A stretch of DNA of 64,000 nucleotides from NCBI GenBank assembly GCA_963734545.1, contig CAVTHO010000008.1, forward strand, positions 256,001 to 320,000, in the 5' to 3' direction. The notes below the pieces were generated by a model. That model was not told where the DNA came from. It worked only from the letters and a program-made list of their open reading frames with translations, and ran no database searches. Positions within the stretch are counted from its first letter, which is position 1; the number at the start of each line of letters is the position of its first letter. Both the position numbers and the translations under genes were made by a program. Positions 37,991 to 57,469 of this stretch are shown here, piece by piece. The stretch is from an uncultured Spirochaetota bacterium. GTDB taxonomy: Bacteria > Spirochaetota > Spirochaetia > SZUA-6 > Fen-1364.

Positions 37991-38077
37991 ACGCCGCTCT
38001 TTCTCCTTGTCTCAGAAGAGTCTCATTCCCAATGTACCATCCCGGCAGGGAAGCGCACCGCATTTCCCTGGCGGGCT

Positions 38078-38806: not shown

Positions 38807-38879
38807 GGGGAAGGATGATACGGGTCCCTGCGCGCCTTGACAACAACCCCCTGTTTCGGTTTATAGATGCATGCATACC

Positions 38880-40127
38880 ATGAGAAATCCCACAGATGTC
38901 AGGGTCGTCATTACCGGCATGGGCACGATCAACCCGATTGGAAGCAGCGTGCCCCAGTTCTGGGAAAACCTCATCAAGGGCACCTCGGGAGTTCGGCGTA
39001 TCTCGAGCTTCCCGATCAACAACTATTCCGTCCAGATTGCCGGGGAAGTCGATCTGCCGGACCTTGCGCCGTATTTCAAGAACCGGAAGATGACAAGAAG
39101 GCTCGACCGGTTCGTCGTCCTGGCGCACATCGCCGGTGCCCAGGCCATGCGGGATTCGGGCCTGGACGTGGAAAAGGCTCCGCACCGGTACGGCGTGATC
39201 ATCGGAACCGGTGAAGGCGGCGCCGCAACACGCTATATCAACACGAAAAAAATCGTCGAGGATGGGATGCAGGCAGCGTCCCCGTTCTTCGCCATGTGCA
39301 TTCCCAGCACCGCATCGGGATTTTTCGCCATGGAGTGGAACCTCCAGGGCCCGTGTTTCTCCGTGAACTCGGCGTGTGCCACCGGAAATCATGCCATGGG
39401 AGTTTCGGCCTCGCTCATCAGGATGGGAATGGCTGACGCAATCTTTACCGGCGGGGCCGAAGCGGTGATCAACCCCACCGGGCTCGCCGCATTCGGAAAC
39501 ATCATGGCTCTTTCCGAGCGCAACGACTCTCCGGAAACCGCCTCACGTCCATTTGACAAGGACAGGGACGGGTTCGTGTTGAGCGAGGGAGCAGGCGTTC
39601 TCTGCCTGGAAGAGCTGGAGCACGCGAAACGCAGGGGTGCCACGATCTACGCCGAGCTCACCGGGTACGGATTCACCGGAGATGCCTACGATCTAGTGGC
39701 GCCGCACCCCACCTCGCGCGGCTCTGCCCGGGCCATGCAGGACGCGCTGGACAACGCGCACCTGAACCCTGACCAGGTGGACCTGATCAACTGTCACGCC
39801 GCCTCCACCTCGCTGGGGGACCTTGCGGAGAGCAAAGCGATCAGCGCGGTCTTCAAGGATCTCGCTTCGAAAGTTCCGTCCCACAGCACCAAATCCATGA
39901 CCGGCCATCCCCTTGGCGCGGCAAGCGCACTGGAAGCCATCGCCGTTATTCTGGCCATACAGAAGGGCGTGATACATCCGACCATCAATCAGTTCGAGCA
40001 GGACCCGCGGATCGCGCTCAACGTGGTGCGAAAGCCCCTGGAGGCAAAGGTCAATCACGTGGTTTCAAACGGTTTCGGGTTCGGCGGTCAGAACGCGGCG
40101 ATAACGCTCTCGCGCTACACGGGTTGA
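38880..40127 (+). CDS. fabF: Beta-ketoacyl-ACP synthase II
   Basis: VVITGMG, SACATG (Cys), NCHAAST and KSMTGH (His-His), SRPFDKDRDGF, NGFGFGG. Confidence 0.9.
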   Translation: MRNPTDVRVVITGMGTINPIGSSVPQFWENLIKGTSGVRRISSFPINNYSVQIAGEVDLPDLAPYFKNRKMTRRLDRFVVLAHIAGAQAMRDSGLDVEKAPHRYGVIIGTGEGGAATRYINTKKIVEDGMQAASPFFAMCIPSTASGFFAMEWNLQGPCFSVNSACATGNHAMGVSASLIRMGMADAIFTGGAEAVINPTGLAAFGNIMALSERNDSPETASRPFDKDRDGFVLSEGAGVLCLEELEHAKRRGATIYAELTGYGFTGDAYDLVAPHPTSRGSARAMQDALDNAHLNPDQVDLINCHAASTSLGDLAESKAISAVFKDLASKVPSHSTKSMTGHPLGAASALEAIAVILAIQKGVIHPTINQFEQDPRIALNVVRKPLEAKVNHVVSNGFGFGGQNAAITLSRYTG

Positions 40128-40160
40128 CACCGAAATCGAGGCACGGATCCCGCCGTAGAC

Positions 40161-40199
40161 TACGACTTTAGTCCCAGATCGAACCGCGACCATAAGACT
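40161..40199 (+). promoter_or_regulatory. Putative NarL/LiaR-type response-regulator sites
   Basis: TACGACTTTAGTC (GACT-N2-AGTC palindrome) with a degenerate copy GCGACCATAAGACT about 24 bp downstream. Confidence 0.4.
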
Positions 40200-40282
40200 T
40201 CCTCAAACCATTCCTCCGACCGACGCGCCCGCGGCGCCTGACGTGCAATGCTTGATCATGTGCAAGTCACAGGAGGAAAGAA

Positions 40283-40453
40283 ATGAACAGGACACAATCG
40301 GAAAAGCAGGCTCGACGGGAAAGCAGGACAAACCGCGGCGCGCAGCGTGAGCAGGCCAGATCAGGGCGCTCTGCCCGGGAATCTCTCAAAGCTGCCGCTG
40401 ACCGGCAGATCGCCGAGATCGAGCGGACATTCACGTCCCGCTATGAATGGTAA
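40283..40453 (+). CDS. 56-aa basic small protein (absent from the ORF track)
   Basis: AGGAGG RBS; MNRTQSEKQARRESRTNRGAQREQARSGRSARESLKAAADRQIAEIERTFTSRYEW*. Confidence 0.55.
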   Translation: MNRTQSEKQARRESRTNRGAQREQARSGRSARESLKAAADRQIAEIERTFTSRYEW

Positions 40454-40463
40454 GGGACCCGAA

Positions 40464-41612
40464 ATGAATGCGATCAGCATCCCTTCGTCATCAGCGGGCA
40501 TGAAACCCATGGCATCCCTGGTGCCCGCGAATCGAATCGTCTATCTGGACGTGCTGAAGGTCGTGCTCACGATCCTGGTGATCGCGCACCACGTGGGACA
40601 GGCCTATGGCCCAACCGGCGGATACTGGCCCGTGCAGGAAACAGCGCGGGCCGCCTTCCTGGGCCCCTTTTTCACCGTGAACCGCTCATTTTTCATGAGC
40701 CTGTTTTTCATGATTTCGGGGTATTTCATGGTCGGCGCGTACCAACGCAACGGGTTTGCCGCTTTCATCCGCAGCCGATTCGTGCGGCTGGGCGTGCCGG
40801 TACTCGCCTTTGCGGCACTCATGCTTCCCGCGCGGATTTTCATCTTTGGCGAGCACATTGCGCGCTGGGATGACTACATAAACGCAGGGCACCTCTGGTA
40901 CCTCGAGCACGTGCTGCTCTTCAGCGTGGTCTATGCGCTCTGGCAGAGGATTCGTGAGTCGTCGCAGCGGAACGCGCCGCAGCGCGGCCGGATATCGAAG
41001 CGCGCGGCGCCCCGCCTGCTGCCGACCTGTGCGGCCCTCCTTCTGGTGGCCGTGGCGTGCGGGGCGGTGCGGATCTGGTCTCCCATCGATCGATGGCTGA
41101 ACCTGCTGGGCTTCCTTCGCGTCGCCTTTGCCGACGTGCCCCGGGACCTTGCATTCTTCATCTTCGGTGCAATGGCCTTCAGGCACGGCTGGTTTGAAAG
41201 CTTCCCCACGCGGAGAGGCATGATCTGGCTTGCCGTTGGCGTCGTGTCGGCACTTGCCTGGTATGCATGGTCCCTGCTCCCGCACACCGGCCTCACCCTC
41301 AGCGGCATGGGCTTCGGGATCGTCTACCCGATCTGGGAGGAGCTGGTCTGCTTCGGGATGTGCATCGGGCTGCTGGTGCTGTTCCGGCAGGCGGTCTCCG
41401 GCCAGGGGCCGTTCGGCAGGCTGCTAGCCGCAAACCAGTACTCGGCGTACTTCTGGCACCCCCTGCTGATCGTCGGGATCCAGATGGGCTTCCTTGCCCT
41501 GTCCCTCGGCCCGTTCGTCAAGTTCGTCGCCGTCACGGCGCTGGGCGTGCCCGTTGTCTTCTTCTGGAGCTGGCTGGTACGAAGAATCCCGGCCGTGCGC
41601 TCGGTGCTGTAG
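40464..41612 (+). CDS. Acyltransferase family 3 (OpgC/MdoC-like) membrane protein
   Basis: RIVYLDVLK..LVIAHH, FFMSLFFMISGYF, RFVRL, GHLWYL, YSAYFWH. Confidence 0.88.
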   Translation: MNAISIPSSSAGMKPMASLVPANRIVYLDVLKVVLTILVIAHHVGQAYGPTGGYWPVQETARAAFLGPFFTVNRSFFMSLFFMISGYFMVGAYQRNGFAAFIRSRFVRLGVPVLAFAALMLPARIFIFGEHIARWDDYINAGHLWYLEHVLLFSVVYALWQRIRESSQRNAPQRGRISKRAAPRLLPTCAALLLVAVACGAVRIWSPIDRWLNLLGFLRVAFADVPRDLAFFIFGAMAFRHGWFESFPTRRGMIWLAVGVVSALAWYAWSLLPHTGLTLSGMGFGIVYPIWEELVCFGMCIGLLVLFRQAVSGQGPFGRLLAANQYSAYFWHPLLIVGIQMGFLALSLGPFVKFVAVTALGVPVVFFWSWLVRRIPAVRSVL

Positions 41613-41621
41613 ATCTCCCCC

Positions 41622-41649
41622 AGGTCGCCTGTGATTTCACGGGCGACCT
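41622..41649. terminator. Hairpin between convergent genes
   Basis: AGGTCGCCTGTG-ATTT-CACGGGCGACCT, 12-bp stem with one G-U pair, 10 bp after the stop. Confidence 0.55.
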
Positions 41650-41792
41650 TCGCGGGATTTTCCCGACCACCCCGCCGAACCTCACGAAAATGCGGAATTC
41701 AGAAATGCGCCTTCTAAAATCGCCGAAAACATGAGGGTCACGGCCCGCCTCGGCGTTTTTTGCAGGGAATCGGGGACGAGTCCGGCGGACCT

Positions 41793-42314
41793 CTAAGGGA
41801 AGCAGACTTCGCCGATGGCGGTGCAGGCAACCTTGCCGTCCGCGATGACCTGTCCGATCATCGTGGCAAAGTACTCGTCGTACTCCAGCTTCCTGGCAAG
41901 CAGAACGACCTCGCGGCCGGGCAGGACGGGCGCCAGGTAGTACGCGCCCACGATTCGGGTGGCCCGCACATTCATCGGCTGATTCTGAGCCGGGACCGCC
42001 GTGCTGCGGCTGCCCAGGAAATAGTGCAGGCAGAGGCCGAGCTGGCCGATCATCTCCACCTCCAGGCAGCCCGGATATACAGGATAGTCGGGAAAGTGAC
42101 CGGCAAATATCGGATCGTCGGAAGAGATGAAACGCGACCCTGCGATCGCCTCTTCATCGAAGCTGACCCCCGTCAATCGATCCACGAGCAGGAACGGCTC
42201 CCGATGCGGGAGGATGCGCTTGATGTCGTCCCTTCCCCATGCAAGGGACGTGAGACGGTCTATCGGAATGAGCGGCTTCTTTCGATTCTCCCGGAGAAGA
42301 GCGTCGTGGTCCAC
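41793..42314 (-). CDS. FabZ/FabA-like 3-hydroxyacyl-ACP dehydratase
   Basis: LPHREPFLLVD and GHFPDYPVYPGCLEVEMIGQ (His/Glu dyad). Confidence 0.88.
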   Translation of the reverse strand: MDHDALLRENRKKPLIPIDRLTSLAWGRDDIKRILPHREPFLLVDRLTGVSFDEEAIAGSRFISSDDPIFAGHFPDYPVYPGCLEVEMIGQLGLCLHYFLGSRSTAVPAQNQPMNVRATRIVGAYYLAPVLPGREVVLLARKLEYDEYFATMIGQVIADGKVACTAIGEVCFP

Positions 42315-42315
42315 T

Positions 42316-43575
42316 CTACGCGCGGAGGCCTTTGGCGATCACGTCCTCGATGATATTGAGGGCCGTGTCCATCTGCTCTTTCGTGAACTGCGTGGACACC
42401 GAGATGCGGAATCTCCGTGAATCCGCCGGCACCGCGGGAAAGTCCACGGGCTGGAGAAACAGCCCGCGCCGCTGTATCTCGTAGGCGAACTGGATGAGCT
42501 TTTCACCCGAGGAGCCGATGATGATCGGTATCACCTGGGATTCGCTCTGACCGAGATTCAGCTTCAGGGCCTGGAGGCCTTTCTTCAGATACGCGACGTT
42601 CTTCCAGAGCAGGTCACGGAGGCTCGAATCACGCGTGGCCACTTCCAGCGCTTTCATCAGCCCCCCTACGACTGGAGGTGAGGGCGCGCAGGAGAAGTTC
42701 CAGGGAGAGGAATATCCCTTGAGGTACTGGATGATGCGGGCGTTGGAACAGATGAACCCGCCCACACCGCCGAAGGACTTGCTGAACGTCCCGAAGCTCA
42801 CGCCGATGTCGTGCTCGAGACCGAAATGCTCGGCCACGCCCCGGCCATTCGGGCCGAACATGAGCGTGGAATGTGCTTCGTCGATATAGGTGGCCGCCTT
42901 GTAGTGGGCGCATACCTTCAGGATTTCCGGCAGCCGTACCAGGTCACCGTCCATTGAATAGACGCCTTCGAAGGCAACCAGCACGCGCTTGCCCTTGCAC
43001 TTCTCCAGCATGGCTTCCAGGGAGACCGGGTCGTTGTGGGAGAAGAACAGCATCTTTGCGCCGGAGAGGGTGCCGCCGTCTATCAGGCTCTTGTGGCACT
43101 TTTCATCAAGGACGAACATGTCCCCCTTGCGCAGGAGCCCCTGGATTGCGCCGACATTCCCGCCCAGCCCGCTGGAAAACAGCAGGCAGTCTTCCTTCTG
43201 CTTGAACTCCGCCAGCTGGCGCGCGAACTTCACGTGCAGGTCGAAAGTGCCGGACAGAAGCGGGGCGCCGGACGCGCCCAGCCCGTAGATATCCAGCGCT
43301 TCCTTTGCCGCCTGGATGACCTCGGGATGCGTGGAGAGCCCGAGGTAGTTGTACGAGGTCATGTTGATGACTTTGCGGCGCTTGCCGTCGAGGCTGCTCA
43401 GGACCTCCGTGCCCGCGCGCGGGGCGGCCAGGAGCTGCTGCCCGAAGAGACCCATGGCGGCCTGGATCTTCGGGTGCTCGATCCACGACTGGAAATCGCT
43501 CGGAGGGGTCAGGACGTCCGGGCTGTCATTGAAGAAAAAGTCCGCCAGGCTGAAGCTGAGGGCCTTGTCAGCCAT
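42316..43575 (-). CDS. PLP-dependent alpha-oxoamine synthase (SPT/BioF/KBL family)
   Basis: SYNYLGL, CHKSL, EGVYSMDGD, IDEAH, GTFSKSFG (PLP Lys), FPAVP..RRFR. Confidence 0.9.
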   Translation of the reverse strand: MADKALSFSLADFFFNDSPDVLTPPSDFQSWIEHPKIQAAMGLFGQQLLAAPRAGTEVLSSLDGKRRKVINMTSYNYLGLSTHPEVIQAAKEALDIYGLGASGAPLLSGTFDLHVKFARQLAEFKQKEDCLLFSSGLGGNVGAIQGLLRKGDMFVLDEKCHKSLIDGGTLSGAKMLFFSHNDPVSLEAMLEKCKGKRVLVAFEGVYSMDGDLVRLPEILKVCAHYKAATYIDEAHSTLMFGPNGRGVAEHFGLEHDIGVSFGTFSKSFGGVGGFICSNARIIQYLKGYSSPWNFSCAPSPPVVGGLMKALEVATRDSSLRDLLWKNVAYLKKGLQALKLNLGQSESQVIPIIIGSSGEKLIQFAYEIQRRGLFLQPVDFPAVPADSRRFRISVSTQFTKEQMDTALNIIEDVIAKGLRA

Positions 43576-43822
43576 TGCCTTTGTTCACGTATTCGAGGAA
43601 TTTCACCGCCAGCTCGTCGATGTTGTTGATGTCCGTCAGCTCGGAGCGTGGAACCTTGATTTTCAGCTCCCGCATGGACGTGGAAACCACTTCGATCATG
43701 TCCAGGCTGTTTGCGCCATAATCTTTCATGGATTTCTGAGGGTCGATGCTGGCGGCGTCGATATCGTCGCTGTTGGCGGCGATGTTCTTCTTGATCACCT
43801 CGATCACCGCTTCTTTTGTCAT
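43568..43822 (-). CDS. Acyl carrier protein, AcpK-like
   Basis: DYGANSLDMIEVV Ppant site; KIKVPRSEL..NIDELA resembles beta-branching ACPs. Confidence 0.88.
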   Translation of the reverse strand: MTKEAVIEVIKKNIAANSDDIDAASIDPQKSMKDYGANSLDMIEVVSTSMRELKIKVPRSELTDINNIDELAVKFLEYVNKGNG

Positions 43823-43840
43823 TTCGCGCTCCTTATCTTG

Positions 43841-44656
43841 TTAAGTCTCTTTATCTGGGGACCGTTCCGCAAGATACCGGCCCATCGCATTATCCCGAAA
43901 GGGGAGGCCGTAGTCAACGCTGATTATCTGGCCGTTCACGGCGTCCAAAAGCCCGCTGCAGAGGGCCAGGACGGCCTTTCCGCACTCCGCGGGGGTCAAA
44001 ATCATGCTGGAGGGAATACCTTGCGTGGCTATGTACTTGAAGAAATCCTCTCCGAAGATCGCCTTGAAGGAATCCGTGTTCACCGTGCCGAACCGCAGCA
44101 CGTTCACCCGTGATCCCTCGGCCTGAAGAGGCACGGAGAGGTACCGGGAAAAAAACTCCAGAAGTGCCTTCGAAGCCGCCACGAAGTCGTACCCAGGGTA
44201 GAAATGGTCCGGGCCGTCGCTGGAGATGGCGAGGACATACTTCGGATAGCTGCCGAACCTCTCCTTGATCCTGCGGGTATAGTCGATGAGCGGCCAGGTG
44301 CTGTACTCGAGGGTCTTGAAGAGCGACCTCTTCTTGTAGTCCGCCAGCGTGAGGGTGCGCAGCGCGAAGCTCACATTGCTGATGAAGATGTCGATCTTCC
44401 CCGCGACCGACGCGATCTGCTCCATCAGCCGGACGGTATCCTCCTCCTCCGCGGCATCCGCTTCGTAGAACATCGGGCGCAGGGCGCCCCGCGACTCGAA
44501 CTCCGCCGCCACCTTCTCCTGGTCGGCGCTTCCCCACTTGTAGGTCAGGTATACCTGTGCCCCGGCTTCGGCGAGCGAGAGCGCAGATGCGAGTCCGATC
44601 CCCTTGGTTCCCCCCGTAATGAGAGCTGTCTTCCCCCGCAGATCCACGCTGACCAT
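43841..44656 (-). CDS. SDR, FabL-like enoyl-ACP reductase
   Basis: TGGTKGIG; YDFVAASK is the Y-X6-K spacing of enoyl reductases. Confidence 0.75.
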   Translation of the reverse strand: MVSVDLRGKTALITGGTKGIGLASALSLAEAGAQVYLTYKWGSADQEKVAAEFESRGALRPMFYEADAAEEEDTVRLMEQIASVAGKIDIFISNVSFALRTLTLADYKKRSLFKTLEYSTWPLIDYTRRIKERFGSYPKYVLAISSDGPDHFYPGYDFVAASKALLEFFSRYLSVPLQAEGSRVNVLRFGTVNTDSFKAIFGEDFFKYIATQGIPSSMILTPAECGKAVLALCSGLLDAVNGQIISVDYGLPFRDNAMGRYLAERSPDKET

Positions 44657-44673
44657 GACTGCCGCCTTCTTTC

Positions 44674-45423
44674 CTATTCGGGGTAGAGCTCGTTGATCGT
44701 GCGGCGGGTTTCCGGGAAGGAAAAACTGATCCGGTGCATCAAGTCTTCCTGGAGCCGCGCATCCACCAGGAGCTTCTTTTTCTTCGCGCTCAGGGTGTGC
44801 TTCAGCAGGGATATGGATCGGGCATCCTTCTCCGCGATCTGCTCGGCCAAGTCCCGGGCCCGGGCCAGGACCTCGCTCCTCGGCAGGATGTAGTTGATAT
44901 GGGTGCCTCTGCCCTCGAGCTCGCTGCCCCGGAAGCGCTTGCCGGTGAACATCATCTCGTTTGCAAGAAAGGGACCGACGAGCTCCGCCAGCAGGGTCGT
45001 GGTGCCCATGCCGGGGGTGAAGCCGAGGCTCATGAATACCGCCCCGTACCGGCTTTCTCTGGCCGCGATCACAATGTCGCAGCAGAACCCGACCGCGAGT
45101 CCCCCTCCTATGGCGTGACCCTCCATCGCGGCGATCACCGGAAAGGGCATCTCGAGAAGCCGCTCGCAGATCACGAAATCCTTGACCGCCGCCTTGCCGT
45201 CGCACAGATCGATCAGCTCCTTCTTGTGCGCGCCGCCGCAGAAGACATCCGGGAGGCCGGAGAGAACGAGGACCTTGGGCCGGCGTTCCTGTTCCAGCTC
45301 TTCCAGTGCCTCGAGGAGCTCCGCGATGAACTCCGAAGAGAAAATATTGCGGCCCCTGGTGTCATTCATCTTCAACCAGGAGACTCCGGAGGGCTCGGAG
45401 GTCAGCTTCATCCGTTCGCTCAT
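44674..45423 (-). CDS. PksI-like enoyl-CoA hydratase fold (ECH2, decarboxylase)
   Basis: VIAAMEGHAIGGG, FMSLGFTPGMGTT, C-terminal EDLMHRISF. Confidence 0.85.
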   Translation of the reverse strand: MSERMKLTSEPSGVSWLKMNDTRGRNIFSSEFIAELLEALEELEQERRPKVLVLSGLPDVFCGGAHKKELIDLCDGKAAVKDFVICERLLEMPFPVIAAMEGHAIGGGLAVGFCCDIVIAARESRYGAVFMSLGFTPGMGTTTLLAELVGPFLANEMMFTGKRFRGSELEGRGTHINYILPRSEVLARARDLAEQIAEKDARSISLLKHTLSAKKKKLLVDARLQEDLMHRISFSFPETRRTINELYPE

Positions 45424-46262
45424 GGCGCACCCGCCTTCCCTTCCCGCGCGCTCGAAAGGGCAAGAGAACGCGACGGCCTGAACCGGGAGAACCAGGCCGG
45501 CACGTGCCCCTCCTGGAATGCCTTCACACCGTCCAGGGTGGGTGGATCGTGCATCATCTCCACCAATCTGCGGCGCGCGAGCAGGCTGCCCTGCTTCGGC
45601 GTCTTGCCGATCAGCTCCGCGGTAAACTCCTTGACAGCGGCAAGCGCGCGGGGGGACGAGCACAGGAGGCGCTTGAAGATCTCGCGCACGCGGCGCTCGA
45701 TATCCGCGCCGGCCACCAGCTCGTCCACGAGATTCAGACGCAGCGCTTCGGAGGCGGAGATCCGGTGCGAGCTCATCACGAGGTAGCGCGCCGTCTGCGG
45801 CGTCACGCGCAGCGCGAGCATGTAGGGCAGCACGTTCGCGGGTATCAGCCCGAAAATCACCTCCCCCAGCTCGAATGTGGCCCGCTCCCCGGCCACCACG
45901 ATGTCGCACGCGCACGCCAGACCGACCCCGCCGGCCTTCACCTCACCCTCGACAAGGCAGACAACCGGCAGTGCCGCGGAGAATATCGTCTCCAGCACGC
46001 CGGCGTAGCTGTCCACCGCCTTCTCCGCATCCGCCCGGGCCGCGGACCCGTGCGCCGCCAGCAGCGCAAGGTCCATGCCCAGGCAGAAGACAGGCCCGTT
46101 GGAGCGCAGGAGAACGGCGCGCACGCGCGGGTCCTTCAGGGAGCGATCCAGCGCGGCTCTCAGCTCCCGCAGGCCTTCGGGGCTCAGGAGGTTGCCGTGC
46201 TCTCCGTCATTCAGGGTGATCACCGCGACGTGGGAGTCCTCGTACTGCTCGATCAGCGCCAC
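45420..46262 (-). CDS. PksH-like enoyl-CoA hydratase (ECH1, HMG dehydratase)
   Basis: FCLGMD, GEVKAGGVG..ACD, GEVIFGLIPANVLP, terminal VPAW. Confidence 0.82.
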   Translation of the reverse strand: MALIEQYEDSHVAVITLNDGEHGNLLSPEGLRELRAALDRSLKDPRVRAVLLRSNGPVFCLGMDLALLAAHGSAARADAEKAVDSYAGVLETIFSAALPVVCLVEGEVKAGGVGLACACDIVVAGERATFELGEVIFGLIPANVLPYMLALRVTPQTARYLVMSSHRISASEALRLNLVDELVAGADIERRVREIFKRLLCSSPRALAAVKEFTAELIGKTPKQGSLLARRRLVEMMHDPPTLDGVKAFQEGHVPAWFSRFRPSRSLALSSAREGKAGAP

Positions 46263-47497
46263 CGGCTGAGCTCCACTCGTAGGAGCGGTAGAAATCCTTG
46301 ACCTGACGAAGCACGAGGCGCTTCCTGCCCCGGTAGTGCCGGTCATACCAGCCCTCCGGGCAGGGATAAATCGGGCGTGAAGCAGGGCTGCTCAATGGCC
46401 TCCTCCCGCATTTTCTCGATGGTCTCGTACTCCGCCACGCTCACCTCGCGGCGGGCATCCAGCTCGGCGTCGATGCCCATGCCGGCAACTACCTCCCGGG
46501 CCTCGGGACACAGAAATCCGCTGTAGAACTCGCCGATTGCCCCGGAGCCGTAGGAAAAAAAGCTGATACGGTCTCCGGCCTTCACGCCCTGCGCGCTCAT
46601 TGCGATCCCGCATATGCCGAGGAAGTTGCTCGCCCCATAGGTGGAGCCGCATCGGCGGGCATACAGGAGCGAGGGTTGGGTCTTCTGCGTGAAGCTTTCC
46701 CGTATCTCGATCTTGGTGCGCGCCCGGGCCAGGTTGCAGAGGGTCCGGTGCGCCTGGAATGCCATGCCGGGAAAGGGAGTGTGGTAGCAGTTCTGGGCAA
46801 AGTAGCTGTCGAAATCCACCGTCTCCCCGGTCGTTTCCACATAATCCCGATAGGACCCTTCCAGGGCATCGAGATACGTGTACAGGCTCACCTCGTTGTT
46901 GCCCATCTCGTGCCGTGCACTGGGCCGGAATGTATCGTAGACATCGGAGGTCCACGTGCCTCTCTTGGACAGCTCGTACTCCACCACCCTTGGTGAGTCG
47001 CTCACGAGAGCGGCCGCGGCCACGCCGCCGAGGACGAACTCTTCCTTCGCGTTCAGGTGCATGCGGGAAAAGTCGGTCGAGATGACCAGCGCTTTCCGCC
47101 CCCGATTCAGCCCGGAGGCGATCCAGTTGAGCGCCGTGTCCAGGGCCGCCACGCCGCTGTAGCAGGCGTGTTTCGTCTCGAAGTTCCGCACGTTGGCGGG
47201 CAGACCCAGCGCGCCGTGCATGTTGGTGCTGATGGGTTTGCCGAAATCAACCGAGCTCTCGGTTCCGACCACGAGCATGCCGATGGCCTGCCTGTCCTCC
47301 CCCTCCAGCATCGGGGCGGCCGCGTTGACCCCCATGGTCACGGTGTCCTCGTAGAGGGGATTCAGGGAGCGTGTGTCGATCAGGAAATCCGCAACCACTT
47401 TCTGCGGGTCCATGCCCCTGGCCTCGGCCAGCTTCTTCTGGTCCAGTATCAGGGAGCTGCCGTAGATGTTGATCTTTTCGATGCCGATGCGGCGCAT
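46207..47497 (-). CDS. PksG-like HMG-(acyl-ACP) synthase; indel near 46360, 3' end uncertain
   Basis: EDTVT, GTESSVDFGK, FETKHACYSG (Cys), DTFRP, YHTPF (His), FSYGSG; C-terminal FYRSYEW in a shifted frame. Confidence 0.9.
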
Positions 47498-47505
47498 ATT
47501 ACTCC

Positions 47506-48261
47506 TTATGGCGCGTAGCTCAGTCCGCCGGCCACCCGGATCACCTCGCCGTTGATGAATCCGGCTTCCGCGCCCGCGAGGTAGTGCACAAGGCTGGCAA
47601 TCTCCTCCGCGGTGCCGATCCGCTTGATCGGACAGTATTCCAGCCAGATCTCGTGCAGCTTTGTGGCCATATGCTGGTCCGTCATGTCCGTTTCCACGTA
47701 GCCGACGGTGACGATATTGGACGTGATGCCTCGGGGGCCGTATTCTCGCGCGAGGGTCTTGGTGAGCCCGATGAGCCCGGCCTTGGCCGCGGCATAATTG
47801 ACCTGGCCGCTGGAGCCCTCCTGCGCGAGAGAGGAGATATTGATGATACGGCCCCAGCGTTTGCTCATGAGGTGAGTGAGAAAGCTGCGGATCACGAAAA
47901 ACGGGCCGGAGAGATCGGCGGCGATCACTTCCTGCCACTGTTCGTCGCTCATCATCGCGGCCGTGTTGTTTCTGACGATGCCGGCATTGTTCACCACGAT
48001 GCCCAGGCTCGGAAAATCCTCCATCACCTGGTCCGCCACCCTCTCCACCTCGGCGCTGTCCGTGACATTCATCCGGTAGGCTTTCAGCGCTGCCGCGCCC
48101 TCCAGCCCGGCAGCCAGGGTCTGTGTCTCCCGCATGGCCGCCTCGTTGCCGACATACGTGAACGCGGTCGGGATGCCCTCCTTGACCAGGCGCAGAACTA
48201 TGGCGCGCCCTATGCCGCGGGAACCGCCCGTCACGAAAGCTGCCGGTAAACCTGGTTCCAT
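47506..48261 (-). CDS. 3-oxoacyl-ACP reductase (FabG-like)
   Basis: TGGSRGIG, NNAGI, NISS, GQVNYAAAK. Confidence 0.9.
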   Translation of the reverse strand: MEPGLPAAFVTGGSRGIGRAIVLRLVKEGIPTAFTYVGNEAAMRETQTLAAGLEGAAALKAYRMNVTDSAEVERVADQVMEDFPSLGIVVNNAGIVRNNTAAMMSDEQWQEVIAADLSGPFFVIRSFLTHLMSKRWGRIINISSLAQEGSSGQVNYAAAKAGLIGLTKTLAREYGPRGITSNIVTVGYVETDMTDQHMATKLHEIWLEYCPIKRIGTAEEIASLVHYLAGAEAGFINGEVIRVAGGLSYAP

Positions 48262-48264
48262 TCC

Positions 48265-49548
48265 CTACCCCTCGTAGCGCCTGATCAGGCTGCAGGCGTT
48301 GATGCCGCCGAACCCGAAGGAGTTTTTCAACATGTAGCGGACCTTGTGCTCCACGGGGCCCCTGGCGCAGACATCGAGGTCCACTTCCGGGTCCAGGCGG
48401 TCGATGTTGATCGTGGGATGGAGGCGGCCGTGCTTCATCTGGAGGAGCCCGGCAATGGTCTCCACGATGGGGGATGCCCAGCAGGTGTGTCCCAGCATCG
48501 ACTTGGCGGCGTTGAGCTTCATCCGGTACGCGTGCGCGCCGAATGCTTCCTTGATGGCCCTGATCTCTTCAAGGTCCCCGCCCGGCGTGCCCGTGGCGTG
48601 ACAGCTCGCGAAATCGACTTCCGAGGGGTCTGTCCCGGTGGACACCAGCAGCTCGCGGATCAGGCGTGCCTGGATTCCAGCAGCAGGCGCGGGCAGGTGA
48701 CAGGCGTTGGCATTGGCCCTTACGCCCATCACTTCCCCATGAATTCGGGCGCCGCGGCTCAACGCGTGCCCCAGCTCTTCCAGCATCAGCGTCCCGGCCC
48801 CGTGCGAGTAGACGAACCCGGCCCGGTCGGCGTCGAACGGCCGCGAAGCCTTTTCCGGGTGATCCTGGAATTCCGGCTTTACAACGACAGCATTGATGAT
48901 CACGGAGGCCTGGATGTCACCGGGGGACATATCGAAAAGCCCGCCGGCAATCACCGCCAGGTCGGACTCCCCGCTCATGATGTCGCGGAAGCCCTCCCGG
49001 AGGGCGAGGTTGCCGCTCGCGCAGGCCCCGCCGATGGTGAAGGTGGGGCCATGCAGTCCCAGGAGCTCCGTGATGACGGCAGGCACGTTCGGATCGATAC
49101 CCTCGACCCCGCTGAGGGGATCCAGGTACTCCACGTCCTGAAGGAAGCGCTTGGAATTCTCGTGGATGTAGTTCGAGTTCAGGTTATGTCCGCCCACGAT
49201 GACGCTGGTGCGGAATGGATCGGTCTCCGAGGCGAAGAGCCCGGCATCCTGCCAGGCAGCGAGAGTGCAGAGAACGGCCATTTTCGCTGAAAAGGTCGTG
49301 GAACGGAACATCTTCTTTGCCTTTTTGAAGGTGTCCGCACCCAAAGCGTCCTTGAAACGTTCCAGGGCCCCCAGGCAGTCGTAATCGCCCAGGTCACCCC
49401 CGATTTTGCACTCTATATTGGTCATATCGAGGCTCTGCCAGCGGCGGATCCCCGATTTCCCGCTTATCAGGTTCTGATAATAGCCCTCCAGCGTATCACC
49501 GAGCGGGTTGATGGTCCCCATGCCGGTGATAACGGCGCGACGTTTCAT
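48265..49548 (-). CDS. Stand-alone ketosynthase, PksF/FabF-like, catalytic Cys retained
   Basis: VGGHNL, TIGGACASG, CHATGT, KSMLGH, NSFGFGGIN; AAGGGGAGG RBS. Confidence 0.88.
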   Translation of the reverse strand: MKRRAVITGMGTINPLGDTLEGYYQNLISGKSGIRRWQSLDMTNIECKIGGDLGDYDCLGALERFKDALGADTFKKAKKMFRSTTFSAKMAVLCTLAAWQDAGLFASETDPFRTSVIVGGHNLNSNYIHENSKRFLQDVEYLDPLSGVEGIDPNVPAVITELLGLHGPTFTIGGACASGNLALREGFRDIMSGESDLAVIAGGLFDMSPGDIQASVIINAVVVKPEFQDHPEKASRPFDADRAGFVYSHGAGTLMLEELGHALSRGARIHGEVMGVRANANACHLPAPAAGIQARLIRELLVSTGTDPSEVDFASCHATGTPGGDLEEIRAIKEAFGAHAYRMKLNAAKSMLGHTCWASPIVETIAGLLQMKHGRLHPTINIDRLDPEVDLDVCARGPVEHKVRYMLKNSFGFGGINACSLIRRYEG

Positions 49549-49563
49549 CTCGCGCGCCTCCCC

Positions 49564-49630
49564 TTGTGCGATACGGCGTACTCGCCGAACGGGTACTCCC
49601 GTACTCCGCACAATCTCGCGGTATTCCGCG
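49564..49630 (-). promoter_or_regulatory. Structured 5' leader with three A(G/A)UA-tetraloop hairpins
   Basis: mRNA sense: CGCGG-AATA-CCGCG, then TTGTGCG..CGCACAA enclosing ACGGG-AGTA-CCCGT and CGGCG-AGTA-CGCCG, abutting the RBS. Confidence 0.55.
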
Positions 49631-49701
49631 CAGTTGTCGGTCTTTCCAGGGCCTGGTGCCATCCCATGATGGGTGAGTGTAATATTTCAGCACCCCTCGA
49701 T

Positions 49702-50675
49702 TCAATAGCTGCCTCGGGCCCCGATGCGCGCCGCGAAAGCCTGAATTTCGTCACTTCTGCCCGAAAAAGCGCAAAGAGAGGTCTTCCAGACAACGCGTCT
49801 CTTGCCGGTCGGGCCCAGCGGCGGCGAACAGCAGGAAAACTCGATGCTGTCAGGCACGCCGCCGGTTCGGCAATCCACCCGGGCGTCATCCCTGCCCTCC
49901 TCCCTCGCAAAATCCTTGACCAGGAGCTGTGCGCGCCCGGACTCACGCTCCTCGAGGCAGAGGATCCGGTTTCCCGCATCCGCGCCCGGGATTTCGATCT
50001 TCGCGGACTGGGGACCCCGCAATCGTACTACCGCGCAGTCTTCGGCGAATTCGAGGCTGCGGGAGGGCAGGGTCACGAGGCTCGTCTCCGTCCACCGTTT
50101 GCGGAGAGGCACGCGAATCTCCGCCCCCATGCGCGCCTGGGTGATGTTCCAGAGCCACACGGGCGCGCGGCAATCGCCCGAGATCTCGAGGACCGTCTCC
50201 TCCTCATACCCGGCCTGGCGCAGCCAGGTCGTGCCCCAGAGGTCGGCCAGCCGCGCCTCTGTCATCGGCCTCACCCGGCGGATGAGCCTGAACCGGATCC
50301 GGGACCCCGTCTTCCAGGCCAGCGCCTCGCCCTTGTTCTCCATGGCATATCCGGATTTCTCGGATGAGCGGGCAAACTGGCCCGGGTCGATGGCGGGGGG
50401 GACCTCGGGGCCTTCGGCGAGGAACTCCTCTTCCGGAGCCAGCCACATCCGGTCCCCCCCGGGTTGATCCAGCCGTCGTCCTTTGATCCGATGTGCAGAA
50501 GACGCAGAAATCCGGGATTCACCCAGAGCGCGTTGTCACCCCGCCAATGGGGCCACACCCCGAGCACGCGCCCGTACTCGGGCAGCACGAGCACGGCGCC
50601 GTCCGCGCCCGATTCGAGGACCGCGTACTCGACGCCGAGGGTCTTCAGGCTGACAACGGTCTCTTCGAGTCCCAT
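49702..50675 (-). CDS. Hypothetical protein (DUF6786-like); indel in a G-run near 50458
   Basis: PEYGRVLG..NALWVNP..WINPGG(DR)MWLAPE joins ORFs 50271-50675 and 49702-50448. Confidence 0.6.
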
Positions 50676-51119
50676 TCAGTTTGCCGGCGCGCGCCGCGCA
50701 ATCACGTCCTGGGACATGACGAGCAGGGTCGTGCGCTCCTGCCAGCCGATTTTTCTCCAGAATCGCCGGCCGGCCCGGTTTTTCGCCAGGACGAAGATGT
50801 GGCACTTCCGCATGCCCAGATCGGCGAGCGCGGCGAGGCTTCGCTCGACCAGGGCGCGGCCGATACCCGTGCGCCGATGGCTGTGCGCGACGGCCAGATG
50901 ATTGAGGAATCCCCTGCGGCCGTCGCTGCCGCCCAGCAGCGCCCCCACGAGAGTGCCGTCCTCCTCCGCGACAAAGCTCAATCCTGGGTTGTGCGCGAGG
51001 TACCGGGCGATGTTCCGCTTTTCGTCCGCCTCGCTCAGCCCGATCCCCTCCATGCTCTGCCAGAGGGCATACGCCGCCTCGTAGTCGGCGATTGTGAACT
51101 CACGCAGCGTCACGCTCAT
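50676..51119 (-). CDS. GNAT acetyltransferase (YpeA-like)
   Basis: GSDGRRGFLNHLAV..HRRTGIG; N..GRRFW..GW. Confidence 0.88.
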   Translation of the reverse strand: MSVTLREFTIADYEAAYALWQSMEGIGLSEADEKRNIARYLAHNPGLSFVAEEDGTLVGALLGGSDGRRGFLNHLAVAHSHRRTGIGRALVERSLAALADLGMRKCHIFVLAKNRAGRRFWRKIGWQERTTLLVMSQDVIARRAPAN

Positions 51120-51225
51120 GCCGCCGGTGTATCCGCCGCTTCCGGCCGCGTCAAGTGCGCATTTGCGCGCAGGTGCGGATTTGTGCCGTAGAAGAATGCG
51201 GCCGCCTTCCTTATAGTTCGCACAC

Positions 51226-52275
51226 ATGGAGACCCTGGAGTTGCGAAACCTGCCGAAGGTGGAGCTGCACCGGCACCTGGACGGGAGCGTGCGGGCAGGC
51301 ACCATCTGGGAGATCGCGCAGGAGCACGGCCTCGATCCGGGCTTCGCCTCGAAGGAAGAGCTGGAGCGCGGCGCCGTCATCAGCGCGCCCATGCAGGACC
51401 TGGACAGCGTCCTTGCCCGGTTCGCCACCCAGCAGGCCGTGCTGTGCTCCTTCGAGGCCATCAGCCGCGTCACGTTCGAGAACGTGGAGGACGCCTGGCG
51501 GGACGGGGTGACGCTCGTCGAGCTGCGCTTCGCGCCGTCCTACATCGCGCACGGCAAGAGCCTCTCGAACGACGAGATCATCGCCGGGGTGCTGGACGGC
51601 ATGCGCCGCGCAATGGCGGCCTGGCCCGTCGAGGTCGGCCTGATCGGCATCCTCCCCCGTCGTTTTCCGCTGGAGAAGAACAGGCAGGCCACCCGGGACC
51701 TGATCCGCTGGAAGATGAGCGGGGAGCCCGGCGCCGCGCGTATCTGCGGCTTCGACCTCGCGGACGGCGAGGCGGACTGTGACCCCGCGGTATTCGTGCC
51801 GCTGGTGGAGCAGGCGCGCAATGCGGGGATGGGCATCACCATCCACAGCGGCGAGGACACGGATGCGGCCCACGTGGCCCGGACCCTCGCGCTCTTCCAT
51901 CCTTCACGCATCGGTCACGGGATCCGAAGCTGGGGGAATGAAGAGGTCATGCGCCGCCTGATGGACGAGAACGTGCTGCTCGAGGTGAGCCCCACTTCGA
52001 ACTGGATCACCAGCGCCGTGCCGTCCCTGTCCGCTCATCCCCTGCCGGGGCTCTTCCGCGCAGGGGTGCCTGTGTGCATCAACTCGGACGATCCGAATCT
52101 CTTCGGCATCGACCTCGTCCACGAATACGAGCTGTGCGCGCGTGAGTTCCAGTTCGGCGAGCATGAGTTCAGGGTCATGAACCGGGCCGCTGCGCAGCAC
52201 TCGTTTCTGCCGGAGGAGACGAAGAGGCGCGTGGCCGAGACACTGCAGGCGGCTGCGCGGAGGGTGCGGCCGTAA
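51226..52275 (+). CDS. add: Adenosine deaminase
   Basis: PKVELHRHLDGS, ELRFAP, TIHSGE, RIGHG, PTSN, NSDDP. Confidence 0.93.
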   Translation: METLELRNLPKVELHRHLDGSVRAGTIWEIAQEHGLDPGFASKEELERGAVISAPMQDLDSVLARFATQQAVLCSFEAISRVTFENVEDAWRDGVTLVELRFAPSYIAHGKSLSNDEIIAGVLDGMRRAMAAWPVEVGLIGILPRRFPLEKNRQATRDLIRWKMSGEPGAARICGFDLADGEADCDPAVFVPLVEQARNAGMGITIHSGEDTDAAHVARTLALFHPSRIGHGIRSWGNEEVMRRLMDENVLLEVSPTSNWITSAVPSLSAHPLPGLFRAGVPVCINSDDPNLFGIDLVHEYELCAREFQFGEHEFRVMNRAAAQHSFLPEETKRRVAETLQAAARRVRP

Positions 52276-53234: not shown

Positions 53235-53281
53235 GGGATACCATGGATTTGACGCGCGATATCAGCTAATATTGCGGTGCC

Positions 53282-56269
53282 GTGAAAAAGAAAAAAGCCG
53301 TTGTCACCACTCTTCGCCAGGCTCTGTCCTACGAACCGGTGGAGCTCGCGTTTGGAACCAGCGGATTGCGCGGGCGGGTGAGTGACATCACCAGCCTGGA
53401 GGCGTACGTGAACACCAGGGGGTTTCTCACGCGGCTTCTCGAGACGGGTGATATCGCCCGGGGGAACACGGTGTTCGTTTCCGGTGATCTGCGGCCGAGC
53501 ACCGACACGCTCGTGGCGGAAGAGGGCTCGCGCGGAGAAATTCTCCAGGCCGTGTGCCGGGCCATCGCGGATTCGGATCTCGCGGCAGGCTACGTGGGCA
53601 GGGTCCCCACGCCCGCTCTCGTGCTCCACGCCATGAAACGCGGGGCCGCGTGCGTCATGGTGACCGGAAGCCACATCCCCTTCGACAGGAACGGCATCAA
53701 GCTCAACAAGCCCTCGGGGGAGCTGCGGAAGCATGACGAAGCCCCGATCCTCGCCGCGGTGAAGAAGGTACGCGACGAAGAATACGCCCGCCCGCTGGAC
53801 GAGAGCCTCTTCGATGAGCAGGGCATGCTGCGCGAGCAGGGCGCGCTTCCGGAACAAGCCACCGGGGCCGCGGAAGAGTACGCGCAGCGCTACACCGCAG
53901 CCTTCCCGCGGGGCGTCCTGGCGGGCAGGAAAATCCTCGTGTGGCAGCACTCCGCGGTGGGCCGGGACCTCGTGGTGAAGATACTGGCAGACCTTGGCGC
54001 CGAGCCGGTTCCCGCCGGGAGGAGCGACTCGTTCATGGCCGTGGACACCGAGGCGGTGAACGACCAGATGGTGCAGGACATCCAGGCGCTCGTGGATGCG
54101 CACGGGAGTGCCTCGATCGCCGCGGTCGTATCGACCGACGGTGACAGTGACCGGCCGCTCGTCCTGTCGGTGGACAACGGCAGGGTGCGCTTCTTTCCCG
54201 GCGACCTGCTCGGCCTGGTTGCCGCGGACTACCTGGGCGCCGGTCATATCGCGGTCCCCGTCAGCGTGAGCGATGCGATCGATCTGCACCTCGGGCCCCG
54301 GCATGTGGTCACGGTCCGGACAAAGATCGGCTCACCCCATGTCATCGCTGCCATGAAGGAAGTCGGCTGGGAGGGAAACGGCGGATTTCTCACGGCGGCC
54401 CCCGTGCGCATTCCGGAAGGCGGCGTGCTGGAGCCGCTTCCCACACGCGACGCGATGCTTCCCATTCTCGCGGCCCTGTACGCCTCCCTCGGCCGCGGAA
54501 AAAGCCTGGGTGCGCTCCTCGATTCTCTTCCCAGGCGGTTCGGAAAGACCGCGCTCGTGCGCGACTTTCCCATGGACGCGGGAAAGGAGATCGTGACGTG
54601 GCTTTCTCCCACCGATCCCTCTGTCCTCGAAGCGCGCTTTGCCTCCGCGGGAATCAGCGTGAAGACGCAGGAGGGCGAGGAGCGCGGGCTCGCAGCGGGA
54701 GATCCGCTGGCGGAAGAGCTCGCCGGAATACGCAGCCGGCTGCAGAGGTACTTTTCCCCGGACGGATTTGGCGAAGTGACCTGGATCAACTGGCGTGACG
54801 GCGTGCGCGTCGGGTTCGACAACGACGAGGTGGCGCATGTGCGGCCGTCGGGCAACGCGCCTGAAATGCGCTTCTACGCCATCGCGGACACCGAGGAACG
54901 GGCGAGCTCCATTTCGACGGGTGCCGTTGGTGAGGACGGGCTCCTGCATCGCATGAGGCAGGACTCCAGCGAGCGCAGCGCCATTGCCGGCATCCGTGTG
55001 TCCCCCCGGGCGCTCACCCTCCGCCCTGCCGTCCAGCATTACGAGTGGGGAGGGTACGAGTTCATTCCCGGCCTGCTGGGCGTGCAGAACACGGAGCGCC
55101 GTCCGTTCGCAGAGCTGTGGATGGGGACCCATCCGCGCGGGCCCGCGCGGGCGGAGATCGACGGAACCCTCCTCTCGCTGGACAGGCTGATTGCCGCCGA
55201 GCCATGGCAGATCCTCGGCACCGATGTCGCGCTTCGTTTTGCGGGCCGGCTGCCCTACCTTTTCAAGGTGCTCGACGTGCGGATCATGGCGTCTCTCCAG
55301 GCGCATCCGTCCAAGGGCCAGGCGGCAGAGGGCTTTGCGCGGGAGAACGCGGCCGGCATACCCCTGGACTCCCCCGAGCGAAACTACAGGGATGAAAACC
55401 ACAAGCCCGAGGTGCACGTGGTCCTCACGGATTTCTGGATGCTGCACGGATTCCGGCCCCTGGAGGAGATCTCCGAGGCGCTCACCGCGGAACCCGAGCT
55501 CAGCGGCATCATGCCGAGCTTCGACGAAAAGCTGAGCGCATCCCACGGGGACCCGGCAGGCAGATCGGCGCTCCTGCGCGAGCTCTACGCGCGGGTGATG
55601 ACAATGGCGCAGGCAGAGGTGGATGCGATCCTGACACCGCTCATTGCCCGGCTGGAGGCGGCGGAGAACCAGGGGGCACTGCGCAGGAACAGCCACGGGT
55701 TCTGGGCCCTGCGGGCCGCGCGGACATTTCCGCTGCCCGGAGGCCACGGTGACCGGGGGATCATTTCCATGTACCTGCTCAATCTGCTGGAGCTGAAGCC
55801 GGGGCAGGGCAGCTACCAGCCCGCCGGCACGCTCCACGCCTACCTGGAAGGCGCGGACGTGGAGCTCATGGCCAGCTCCGACAATGTGCTTCGGGGCGGT
55901 CTGACCCCCAAGTACGTGGACGTTCCCGAGCTCCTGGCCACTCTCTCGTTCACTGACGGCCGCCCGCCGATCCTCGAGGGACGCGCCGCATCCGAGACGG
56001 GACGCGAATACGAAACCCCGGCAGAGGAGTTTGCGCTGGAGAGGATCGAGATCTCCCCGGGCACGCCCTATTCGGGCGGAAGGGACCACAGCGCGGATTG
56101 TCTCATCGTGATCGAAGGCGCGGCGGCGGTGATCGCGGGCGGGCGCACGGTCATGCTCCCCCGCGGCGGGGCGGCAATGGTGCCAGCCGCTCTTCCCTAC
56201 TCGATCGCGGCCCGGTCCCCGCGCGCGGTCCTCTTCAAGGCGGGTGTGCCACTCCGCGAGGGTGCGTAA
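53282..56269 (+). CDS. Phosphomannomutase - class I mannose-6-phosphate isomerase fusion
   Basis: N-half FGTSGLRG, VTGSHIP, TDGDSDR, VRPSGNAPE; C-half QHYEWG, WMGTHP, SLQAHP, DENHKPE, HAYL, SSDNVLRGGLT. Confidence 0.9.
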   Translation: MKKKKAVVTTLRQALSYEPVELAFGTSGLRGRVSDITSLEAYVNTRGFLTRLLETGDIARGNTVFVSGDLRPSTDTLVAEEGSRGEILQAVCRAIADSDLAAGYVGRVPTPALVLHAMKRGAACVMVTGSHIPFDRNGIKLNKPSGELRKHDEAPILAAVKKVRDEEYARPLDESLFDEQGMLREQGALPEQATGAAEEYAQRYTAAFPRGVLAGRKILVWQHSAVGRDLVVKILADLGAEPVPAGRSDSFMAVDTEAVNDQMVQDIQALVDAHGSASIAAVVSTDGDSDRPLVLSVDNGRVRFFPGDLLGLVAADYLGAGHIAVPVSVSDAIDLHLGPRHVVTVRTKIGSPHVIAAMKEVGWEGNGGFLTAAPVRIPEGGVLEPLPTRDAMLPILAALYASLGRGKSLGALLDSLPRRFGKTALVRDFPMDAGKEIVTWLSPTDPSVLEARFASAGISVKTQEGEERGLAAGDPLAEELAGIRSRLQRYFSPDGFGEVTWINWRDGVRVGFDNDEVAHVRPSGNAPEMRFYAIADTEERASSISTGAVGEDGLLHRMRQDSSERSAIAGIRVSPRALTLRPAVQHYEWGGYEFIPGLLGVQNTERRPFAELWMGTHPRGPARAEIDGTLLSLDRLIAAEPWQILGTDVALRFAGRLPYLFKVLDVRIMASLQAHPSKGQAAEGFARENAAGIPLDSPERNYRDENHKPEVHVVLTDFWMLHGFRPLEEISEALTAEPELSGIMPSFDEKLSASHGDPAGRSALLRELYARVMTMAQAEVDAILTPLIARLEAAENQGALRRNSHGFWALRAARTFPLPGGHGDRGIISMYLLNLLELKPGQGSYQPAGTLHAYLEGADVELMASSDNVLRGGLTPKYVDVPELLATLSFTDGRPPILEGRAASETGREYETPAEEFALERIEISPGTPYSGGRDHSADCLIVIEGAAAVIAGGRTVMLPRGGAAMVPAALPYSIAARSPRAVLFKAGVPLREGA

Positions 56270-56290
56270 GGGCCACGAGCGGCGGAAGCC

Positions 56291-57385: not shown

Positions 57386-57469
57386 CCCGGTACGATAGCA
57401 GGCTGGACATCCCATGTACATCACGGGCGCGCCCGTGCGCCGGACACGGCTATCGAGGCCCGGGCATTG

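Follow-up and report, generated by a model that had tools for sequence, protein, structure and literature searches.

A nine-gene minus-strand operon was analyzed in a 64,000-nucleotide stretch of DNA from an uncultured Spirochaetota bacterium (hereafter the window; GCA_963734545.1, contig CAVTHO010000008.1, given as C8, positions C8:256001-320000). The operon (41793-49548 of the window) encodes, in order, a ketosynthase (KS-B), a ketoreductase (KR), a 3-hydroxy-3-methylglutaryl (HMG) synthase (HMGS), two crotonase-fold proteins (ECH1 and ECH2), an enoyl reductase (ER), an acyl carrier protein (ACP), an alpha-oxoamine synthase (AOS), and a dehydratase (DH). Together with a second ketosynthase (KS-A) and a phosphopantetheinyl transferase (PPTase) encoded alongside, these proteins would form a self-contained, ACP-bound lipid line that makes a methyl-branched, most likely iso-terminal, sphingoid base from acetate, a reading to which we give about an even chance. 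The known role of beta-branching cassettes is to assist giant polyketide synthases (PKSs) that make secondary metabolites; here the cassette forms part of a private type II fatty acid synthase (FAS) and appears to serve a membrane-lipid pathway.

Genes were called from a listing of open reading frames (ORFs), with placement of start codons, and from Pfam and NCBIfam scans (50 window ORFs against Pfam). The source genome is 5.14 Mb in 10 contigs and 89% complete, and the G+C content of the window is 63-68%. Genes within the operon overlap or are separated by gaps of at most 18 nt, and an acyltransferase_3 gene, the FabF-type KS-A gene, and a Sfp/HetI-type PPTase gene lie beside it (Table 1). 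An initial annotation of this DNA, covering the span of six of the nine operon genes, had placed the HMGS, ECH1, ECH2, and ER genes consecutively and had named two ketosynthase genes; both assignments were confirmed, the four consecutive genes being on the minus strand. Scanning 37900-51600 for promoters and terminators did not serve to delimit the operon: promoter-like sites numbered 2, with 2.2 expected, and terminator-like sites numbered 15, with 10.3 expected.

The operon was compared across 80 loci obtained by scanning for the HMGS in one genome per species and mapping the window proteins by tblastn (loci are cited by number, e.g., L001). Fifty-six loci were non-Myxococcota (52 with labels beginning Spirochaet or Brevinematales, 2 FCPU426, 1 Aminicenantes, and 1 other) and 22 were Myxococcota; L016 and L074 were assigned to neither group. 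The complete set of nine core genes was present in 34 of the 56 non-myxobacterial loci and in 12/22 Myxococcota loci, and the remainder were mostly cut by contig ends. L024 and L026-L030 held only the HMGS and ECH genes, L024 having KS-B and KR as well. In L027-L030 (e.g., Candidatus Haliotispira prima, NZ_CP123443.1), more distant HMGS homologues, 51-54% identical, stood in a different context with ECH1 only, and ECH2, ER, ACP, and AOS were absent within 10 kb. Spirochaetota loci kept the order KS-B, KR, HMGS, ECH1, ECH2, ER, ACP, AOS, DH, with KS-A adjoining the operon and the PPTase conserved beside KS-A. Myxococcota loci (Enhygromyxa, Nannocystis, Nannocystaceae, and Polyangia metagenome-assembled genomes) had the order AOS, malonyl-CoA:ACP transacylase (MAT), DH, KS-B, KR, HMGS, ECH1, ECH2, ER, ER, ACP. 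The second ER was found in 18/22 Myxococcota loci and was absent from Spirochaetota loci, and no second ketosynthase lay within 10 kb in any of the 22 Myxococcota loci. The ECH2 marker was detected in 31 of 401 Spirochaetota genomes sampled (21 of 153 genera) and was not found in several large families. Cultured carriers are Enhygromyxa salina SWB005, Nannocystis sp. RBIL2, and Nannocystaceae bacterium ST9.

The matches of the HMGS support assignment to the ACP-dependent CurD/PksG kind, with the catalytic cysteine in place. When a full-length relative (P0001) was used as the query, the best solved relatives were CurD (256 bits) and PksG (233 bits), with Myxococcus xanthus HMG-CoA synthase (5hwo) near the latter at 223 bits. 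CurD and PksG matched P0001 end to end (residues 1-408), while MvaS-type enzymes matched only to about residue 363-375. The Cys112 motif was kept in 77/77 homologues, and Glu80, His239, and Ser318-Gly319 were compared by eye with the triad named in the available portion of PMC11522927.

In the assembly, the HMGS frame is cut short by 25 codons (384 amino acids (aa) compared with 409 aa in relatives). The cause is a surplus base near 46356, which shifts the conserved last 27 residues into a different frame. Another surplus base is at 46268, and both were missing from all four related loci aligned. The ECH1 ORF is open to 46346; its start is probably the GTG at 46262, which matches the start in aligned relatives. 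Public wetland-metagenome contigs over the 3' end of the HMGS gene were short pieces. None of the 3 contigs crossing 46268 had the base there, and one of them showed no other difference over 46 nt. The base at 46356 was absent from the one contig crossing 46306-46371, which is about 94% alike. Because both bases are missing from relatives and public contigs, and because other genes in this genome also appear to be split, they are probably assembly errors; if they were real, the HMGS would be without its conserved C-terminal tail. E1_dh matches were split into adjacent fragments at C8:78833-79596, C8:202289-203081, and C3:115869-116766.

The other cassette proteins were compared with curated models NF005496, NF005498, NF005490, and NF005502, which we take to be models of PksI, PksH, PksF, and AcpK. 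An adjacent ECH1/ECH2 pair is present, of which only ECH2 passed its curated cut-off. KS-B was aligned to FabF and has the active-site Cys and both His in place; the Cys was kept in 67/67 homologues and the two His motifs in 67/67 and 66/67. Judged by these motifs, KS-B is predicted to be competent for condensation, unlike the condensation-incompetent KS0 that is the cassette ketosynthase of canonical systems (PMC11522927, in the portion available).

A type II FAS set (KS, KR, DH, ER, and ACP, with catalytic motifs) is complete within the operon, and its KR, DH, and ER could run ordinary reductive cycles, in agreement with the KR/DH/ER cycle that the initial annotation had proposed. The ER had Thermus FabI and Bacillus FabL as its best solved matches (FabI, 1ulu, 79 bits), and its Tyr-x6-Lys motif, conserved among homologues, aligned with the catalytic pair of FabI, which supports the name enoyl reductase over that of a generic short-chain dehydrogenase/reductase (SDR), though scores were low. 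The ACP serine motif was kept in 56/56 homologues, and the DH motif GHFP..PVYPG was conserved. KS-A was 43.6% identical to a housekeeping FabF (C5:490994-492220). The housekeeping FabD and FabF genes lie on another contig (C5:489850-492220), and the FAS genes of the operon are paralogues of this separate set. MAT was absent from the window and present in 13/34 complete non-myxobacterial loci.

The gene order and the matches of the AOS point toward sphingolipid synthesis. The ACP gene overlaps the AOS gene by 8 nt, and an ACP gene directly before spt is the known rhodobacterial arrangement and is also how acpR and spt lie in Caulobacter and E. coli BL21 (PMC9386255, in part). As a single protein, the AOS matched the serine palmitoyltransferase (SPT) of Sphingobacterium multivorum (3a2b) at 257 bits. 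With a profile of 25 orthologues this match rose to 339 bits, followed by 2-amino-3-ketobutyrate CoA ligase (KBL) at 297 bits, Sphingomonas SPTs at 274-278 bits, and CAI-1 synthase at 144 bits. The pyridoxal phosphate (PLP) lysine motif was kept in 48/48 homologues, and the AOS was 33% identical to E. coli BL21 Spt. Residues 1-55 (window 43411-43575) form an N-terminal extension in which Ser9, Asp12, Phe13, Pro25, and Trp31 were invariant across the 25 orthologues and which was matched by no solved AOS.

In relatives, the operon was linked to a gene of the YghO family. YghO is a homologue of Caulobacter CC_1154, an N-acyltransferase required for dihydroceramide (PMC9386255, available portion). 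A protein of about 380 aa was encoded directly upstream of MAT and KS-B in relatives and was 36% identical to a protein beside the Enhygromyxa cluster; its identity to E. coli BL21 YghO was 35% across the whole protein (E 9e-77). The family name was given by this comparison, as neither NCBIfam models nor solved structures (E up to 1) yielded a match to these neighbors. A YghO-family gene was present in 13/34 complete non-myxobacterial loci and 7/12 complete Myxococcota loci. Of the 40 loci with enough DNA on that side, 11 had such a gene no more than 2.8 kb upstream of KS-B. Genes of the NAD-epimerase family neighbored YghO in L048 and several of the Myxococcota loci. Other additions beside relatives were MAT, a GT4 glycosyltransferase, a CDP-alcohol phosphatidyltransferase, and, in 2 relatives, FabH.

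The pathway set out here is predicted from the gene content described above, and the prediction extends to each reaction, the amino-acid substrate, the length of the chain, and where it is branched. The PPTase would activate the dedicated ACP, which would be loaded with malonyl units by the housekeeping FabD in this organism and by the in-cluster MAT in many relatives. KS-B would decarboxylate malonyl-ACP to acetyl-ACP and condense it to a 3-oxoacyl-ACP, most likely acetoacetyl-ACP. HMGS would then add acetate at the 3-keto group, ECH1 would dehydrate, ECH2 would decarboxylate, and the FabI/FabL-like ER would reduce the product to leave a methyl branch; on acetoacetyl-ACP, these steps would give isovaleryl-ACP. 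Ordinary reductive cycles would follow with KS-A or KS-B, KR, DH, and ER. At least one such cycle would run on the operon ACP, as KR and DH are needed only there and are conserved in both phyla, and in Myxococcota KS-B must both elongate and make the 3-keto substrate of HMGS, being the only ketosynthase there. The SPT-like AOS would condense the finished acyl-ACP with an amino acid, probably serine, to a methyl-branched 3-keto long-chain base. N-acylation of this base by an enzyme of the YghO/bacterial ceramide synthase (bCerS) family would give a membrane lipid of the ceramide type. CurD also takes acetoacetyl when its donor ACP carries it, though threefold more slowly (PMC11522927, in part), so one ACP could act as donor and acceptor.

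The initial annotation had proposed an ACP-bound isovaleryl route that gives leucine-independent iso-branched chains. The ACP-bound part is favored by the CurD/PksG-kind HMGS, the dedicated ACP, and the PPTase. The end product was revised: since the AOS is SPT-like and directly follows the ACP, and since relatives are linked to YghO-family genes, the chain is probably consumed on the ACP for a long-chain base, making an amino lipid (sphingoid base or ceramide) likelier than a free iso-fatty acid.

Four known systems were compared with the operon. The HMGS beta-branching cassettes of PKSs (AcpK/PksF/PksG/PksH/PksI of bacillaene and CurB-CurF of curacin) share its five-part logic of a ketosynthase able to supply acetyl-ACP, a small ACP, an ACP-dependent HMGS, ECH1, and ECH2, and the best family and structure matches of the operon cassette proteins point to them. 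Unlike these cassettes, the operon keeps the catalytic Cys in its KS-B, has a single ACP rather than donor and acceptor ACPs, and sits among type II FAS genes, with only ECH2 above a curated cut-off; the Pfam scan of 50 window ORFs revealed no PKS megasynthase, so a modular PKS acceptor is lacking. The operon thus resembles a PKS beta-branching cassette in its working and departs from it in two defining features, the KS0 and the modular PKS acceptor.

The AasR/AcpR/Spt/CerR/CerS pathway of Caulobacter and E. coli BL21 (PMC9386255 and PMC11324152, each in part) has the same placement of an ACP directly before an SPT-like AOS, and relatives of the operon are likewise linked to an N-acyltransferase of the YghO/CC_1154 family, some being near an NAD-epimerase-family gene. 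In the operon, however, AasR would be replaced by de novo acyl-ACP synthesis through the in-operon FAS and its branching cassette, and the AOS is closer to the Bacteroidota-type SPT than to E. coli BL21 Spt. The scanned ORFs of the window included no AMP-binding enzyme, a search that did not extend to the whole genome.

The alternative isovaleryl-CoA route of myxobacteria, which uses MvaS, LiuC, AibA/B, and AibC, has the same carbon logic (acetoacetyl to HMG, methylglutaconyl, methylcrotonyl, and isovaleryl). The operon would differ from it in carrying these intermediates on ACP instead of CoA, in decarboxylating with the crotonase-fold ECH2 and reducing with a FabI/FabL-like SDR, and in delivering the product to the AOS rather than to FabH. 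With the type II FAS (FabD/F/G/Z/I and AcpP), the operon shares a Cys-His-His ketosynthase, a FabG-like KR, a FabZ-like DH, a FabI/FabL-like ER, and an ACP, but its genes are interleaved with the HMGS cassette and ended by the AOS, and only KS-A passed a curated model.

Several observations weigh against the proposed pathway. The AOS reached no curated equivalog cut-off (SPT-CFB 311/640, SPT-BetaP 277/500, BioF 323/426, and KBL 303/460 bits). No YghO-family gene lies in the window or adjoins the operon. The nearest one (C8:326205-327314), which shares 31% identity with E. coli YghO, is outside the window at a distance of about 20 kb from the operon and is accompanied in the genome by four further paralogues, so the ceramide link for the window rests on relatives. 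The CerR-like epimerases of relatives matched the E. coli BL21 epimerase over 73 N-terminal residues only. A second ACP-AOS pair in the same genome could be the true SPT of the organism, or could belong to another amino-lipid or metabolite line. The assembled HMGS lacks its C-terminal end, although the public contigs suggest an assembly error. No feature fixing the acceptor chain length, or which 3-oxoacyl-ACP enters HMGS, was found in the sequences.

The second ACP-AOS pair lies at C8:846408-851082 (L085:6408-7842 and beyond), with an AOS 28% identical to that of the operon. It is preceded by a UbiA prenyltransferase gene and followed by an AIR-synthase-related gene, a ketosynthase gene, and a radical SAM/SPASM gene. 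The other YghO/CC_1154 paralogues are at C8:825184-826314, C5:10787-11860, C5:411197-411877, and C7:352053-353135; with five members in one genome, this family of putative ceramide synthases is unusually expanded.

Three possibilities were weighed for where the branch falls. An isovaleryl-ACP primer with an iso-terminal chain is the best fit and the simplest, though not proven; it is the more economical since the nearest solved HMGS, CurD, acts on acetoacetyl-ACP (PMC11522927, in part) and since FabH, a maker of acetoacetyl-ACP, occurs in the cluster of 2 relatives. Both observations argue against a single methyl branch placed away from the primer, which would arise if HMGS took a 3-oxoacyl-ACP of greater length, such as that of the final cycle preceding the AOS, to leave a mid-chain or head-proximal methyl; nor was any feature found that could measure chain length. 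That placement is unlikely but deserves serious consideration, as HMGSs of polyketide pathways take long and varied acceptors (PMC11522927, same portion) and the condensation-competent KS-B, as the sole ketosynthase in Myxococcota, must make 3-oxoacyl-ACPs that differ in length, each of them a possible substrate for diversion to HMGS. The initial annotation had also raised an alternation of branching cycles with KR/DH/ER cycles, which would put a methyl on every fourth carbon and yield a phytanoyl-like chain, with the two ketosynthase paralogues dividing the two cycle types; with the AOS considered, such a chain would end as an isoprenoid-mimic sphingoid base. Enzymes for both kinds of cycle are indeed in one operon, and two ketosynthases in Spirochaetota, or two ERs in Myxococcota, could separate them. 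Neither split is conserved, however, as each second gene is absent from the other phylum, nothing that would enforce strict alternation is apparent in a type II system of separate enzymes sharing one ACP, and no such lipid turned up in literature searches. This arrangement has no positive support and is highly improbable; if true, it would be a third route to isoprenoid-patterned lipids, made from acetate only, on ACP, and independently of the mevalonate (MVA) and methylerythritol phosphate (MEP) pathways.

The remaining two alternatives concern the product as a whole. The operon may make an amino-ketone secondary metabolite of small or medium size, whether a signal, an alkaloid, or a precursor of pyrazines, with the AOS as a CqsA/LqsA-type enzyme or polyketide off-loader. 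The AOS passes no curated SPT model, a YghO-family gene is not adjacent in the window, and HMGS cassettes are otherwise known from secondary metabolism, all of which suit a metabolite. It is nevertheless quite an unlikely product, given that the conserved full set of KR, DH, ER, and FabF points to repeated reductive cycles, that YghO-family, glycosyltransferase, and CDP-alcohol phosphatidyltransferase genes accompany the operon in relatives, and that CAI-1 synthase matched the AOS far more weakly than SPT did. The operon HMGS could also be an ordinary HMG-CoA synthase that feeds the mevalonate pathway among unrelated neighbors, a case that the initial annotation had set against its own proposals. 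Pfam and TIGR01835 recognize the protein as an HMG-CoA synthase homologue, but the TIGR01835 score of the window HMGS (269 bits) is under the cut-off of 360, the full-length alignment is with CurD and PksG and not with MvaS-type enzymes, and the nine-gene order is conserved in two phyla. A separate HMGS (C6:130983-132119, 29% identical to that of the operon) is encoded 4 kb from an HMG-CoA reductase (C6:136417-137511), and with this pair on another contig a mevalonate role for the operon HMGS is very unlikely, to the point of being negligible.

Literature searches (subscription journals were outside their scope) returned nothing that combines an oxoamine synthase or SPT with HMG-CoA synthase, enoyl-CoA hydratase, ACP, or beta-branching, and nothing relevant on SPT or sphingolipids in Spirochaetota; searches on isovaleryl-ACP and HMG-ACP returned only work on PKSs and on acyl-homoserine lactone synthases and quorum sensing. 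If the sphingoid-base reading is true, methyl-branched sphingoid bases would be made from acetate alone, whereas known bacterial routes use an amino-acid-derived primer or a free fatty acid loaded by AasR. Carriers include peat and wetland Spirochaetota with unstudied lipids, for which the operon predicts a lipid class and a possible biomarker, and the cultured carriers make this prediction testable. The LpxC family (PF03331) was not found in the 89%-complete genome; the organism may lack lipid A, and a sphingolipid could then matter for its outer membrane.

Table 1. Position, strand, and principal family evidence for genes of the operon and its surroundings (window coordinates).
Feature	Position	Strand	Evidence
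KS-B	48265-49548	-	Best NCBIfam match NF005490 (PksF-type), 308.5 bits, below cut-off 445; Cys-His-His intact
FabG-like 3-oxoacyl-ACP reductase (KR)	47506-48261	-	adh_short_C2 187 bits; TIGR01830 240 bits, below cut-off 298
ACP-type HMGS, CurD/PksG-like	46343-47497	-	Pfam HMG_CoA_synt_N and HMG_CoA_synt_C; 384 aa as assembled
ECH1, PksH-like dehydratase	45420-46262	-	ECH_1 143 bits; NF005498 second-best match, 142 bits, below cut-off 250
ECH2, PksI-like decarboxylase	44674-45423	-	NF005496 271.5 bits, above cut-off 215
FabI/FabL-like enoyl-ACP reductase (ER), SDR fold, Tyr-x6-Lys	43841-44656	-	FabL best NCBIfam match, 106 bits, below cut-off 328
Dedicated ACP	43568-43822	-	PP-binding; best model NF005502, 54.7 bits, below cut-off 79
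AOS, SPT-like	42316-43575	-	Nearest solved structure Sphingobacterium SPT (3a2b)
FabZ-like 3-hydroxyacyl-ACP dehydratase (DH)	41793-42314	-	FabA family; FabZ models 81 and 75 bits, below cut-offs
KS-A, FabF-type elongating ketosynthase	38880-40127	+	NF005589 470 bits, above cut-off 387
Sfp/HetI-type PPTase	38078-38806	-	NF042922 133 bits, below cut-off
Membrane acyltransferase_3	40443-41612	+	Pfam; variable accessory gene, outside conserved core
Protein without family assignment, upstream of KS-B	49702-50448	-	No Pfam or NCBIfam match

The acyltransferase_3 gene was found only in the window and L001 and was absent from L003, whose HMGS is 95% identical to that of the window. The protein encoded upstream of KS-B occupies the position at which other relatives carry MAT or YghO genes; it has no likeness to the MAT of relatives, and its ORF was found only in L001, L003, and L016. 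DUF6786 was suggested for it by Atlas from language-model features only and is taken as a lead. The genome was also checked for a branched-chain keto-acid dehydrogenase, as the initial annotation had proposed, and at least four intact E1-alpha paralogues were found, of which one passed a pyruvate dehydrogenase model and three passed none. At 53270-57469, 4-8 kb from the operon, the window carries a gene for a fused phosphomannomutase/mannose-6-phosphate isomerase (999 aa) and a divergent mannose-1-phosphate guanylyltransferase gene, which could supply GDP-mannose for a glycolipid head group.

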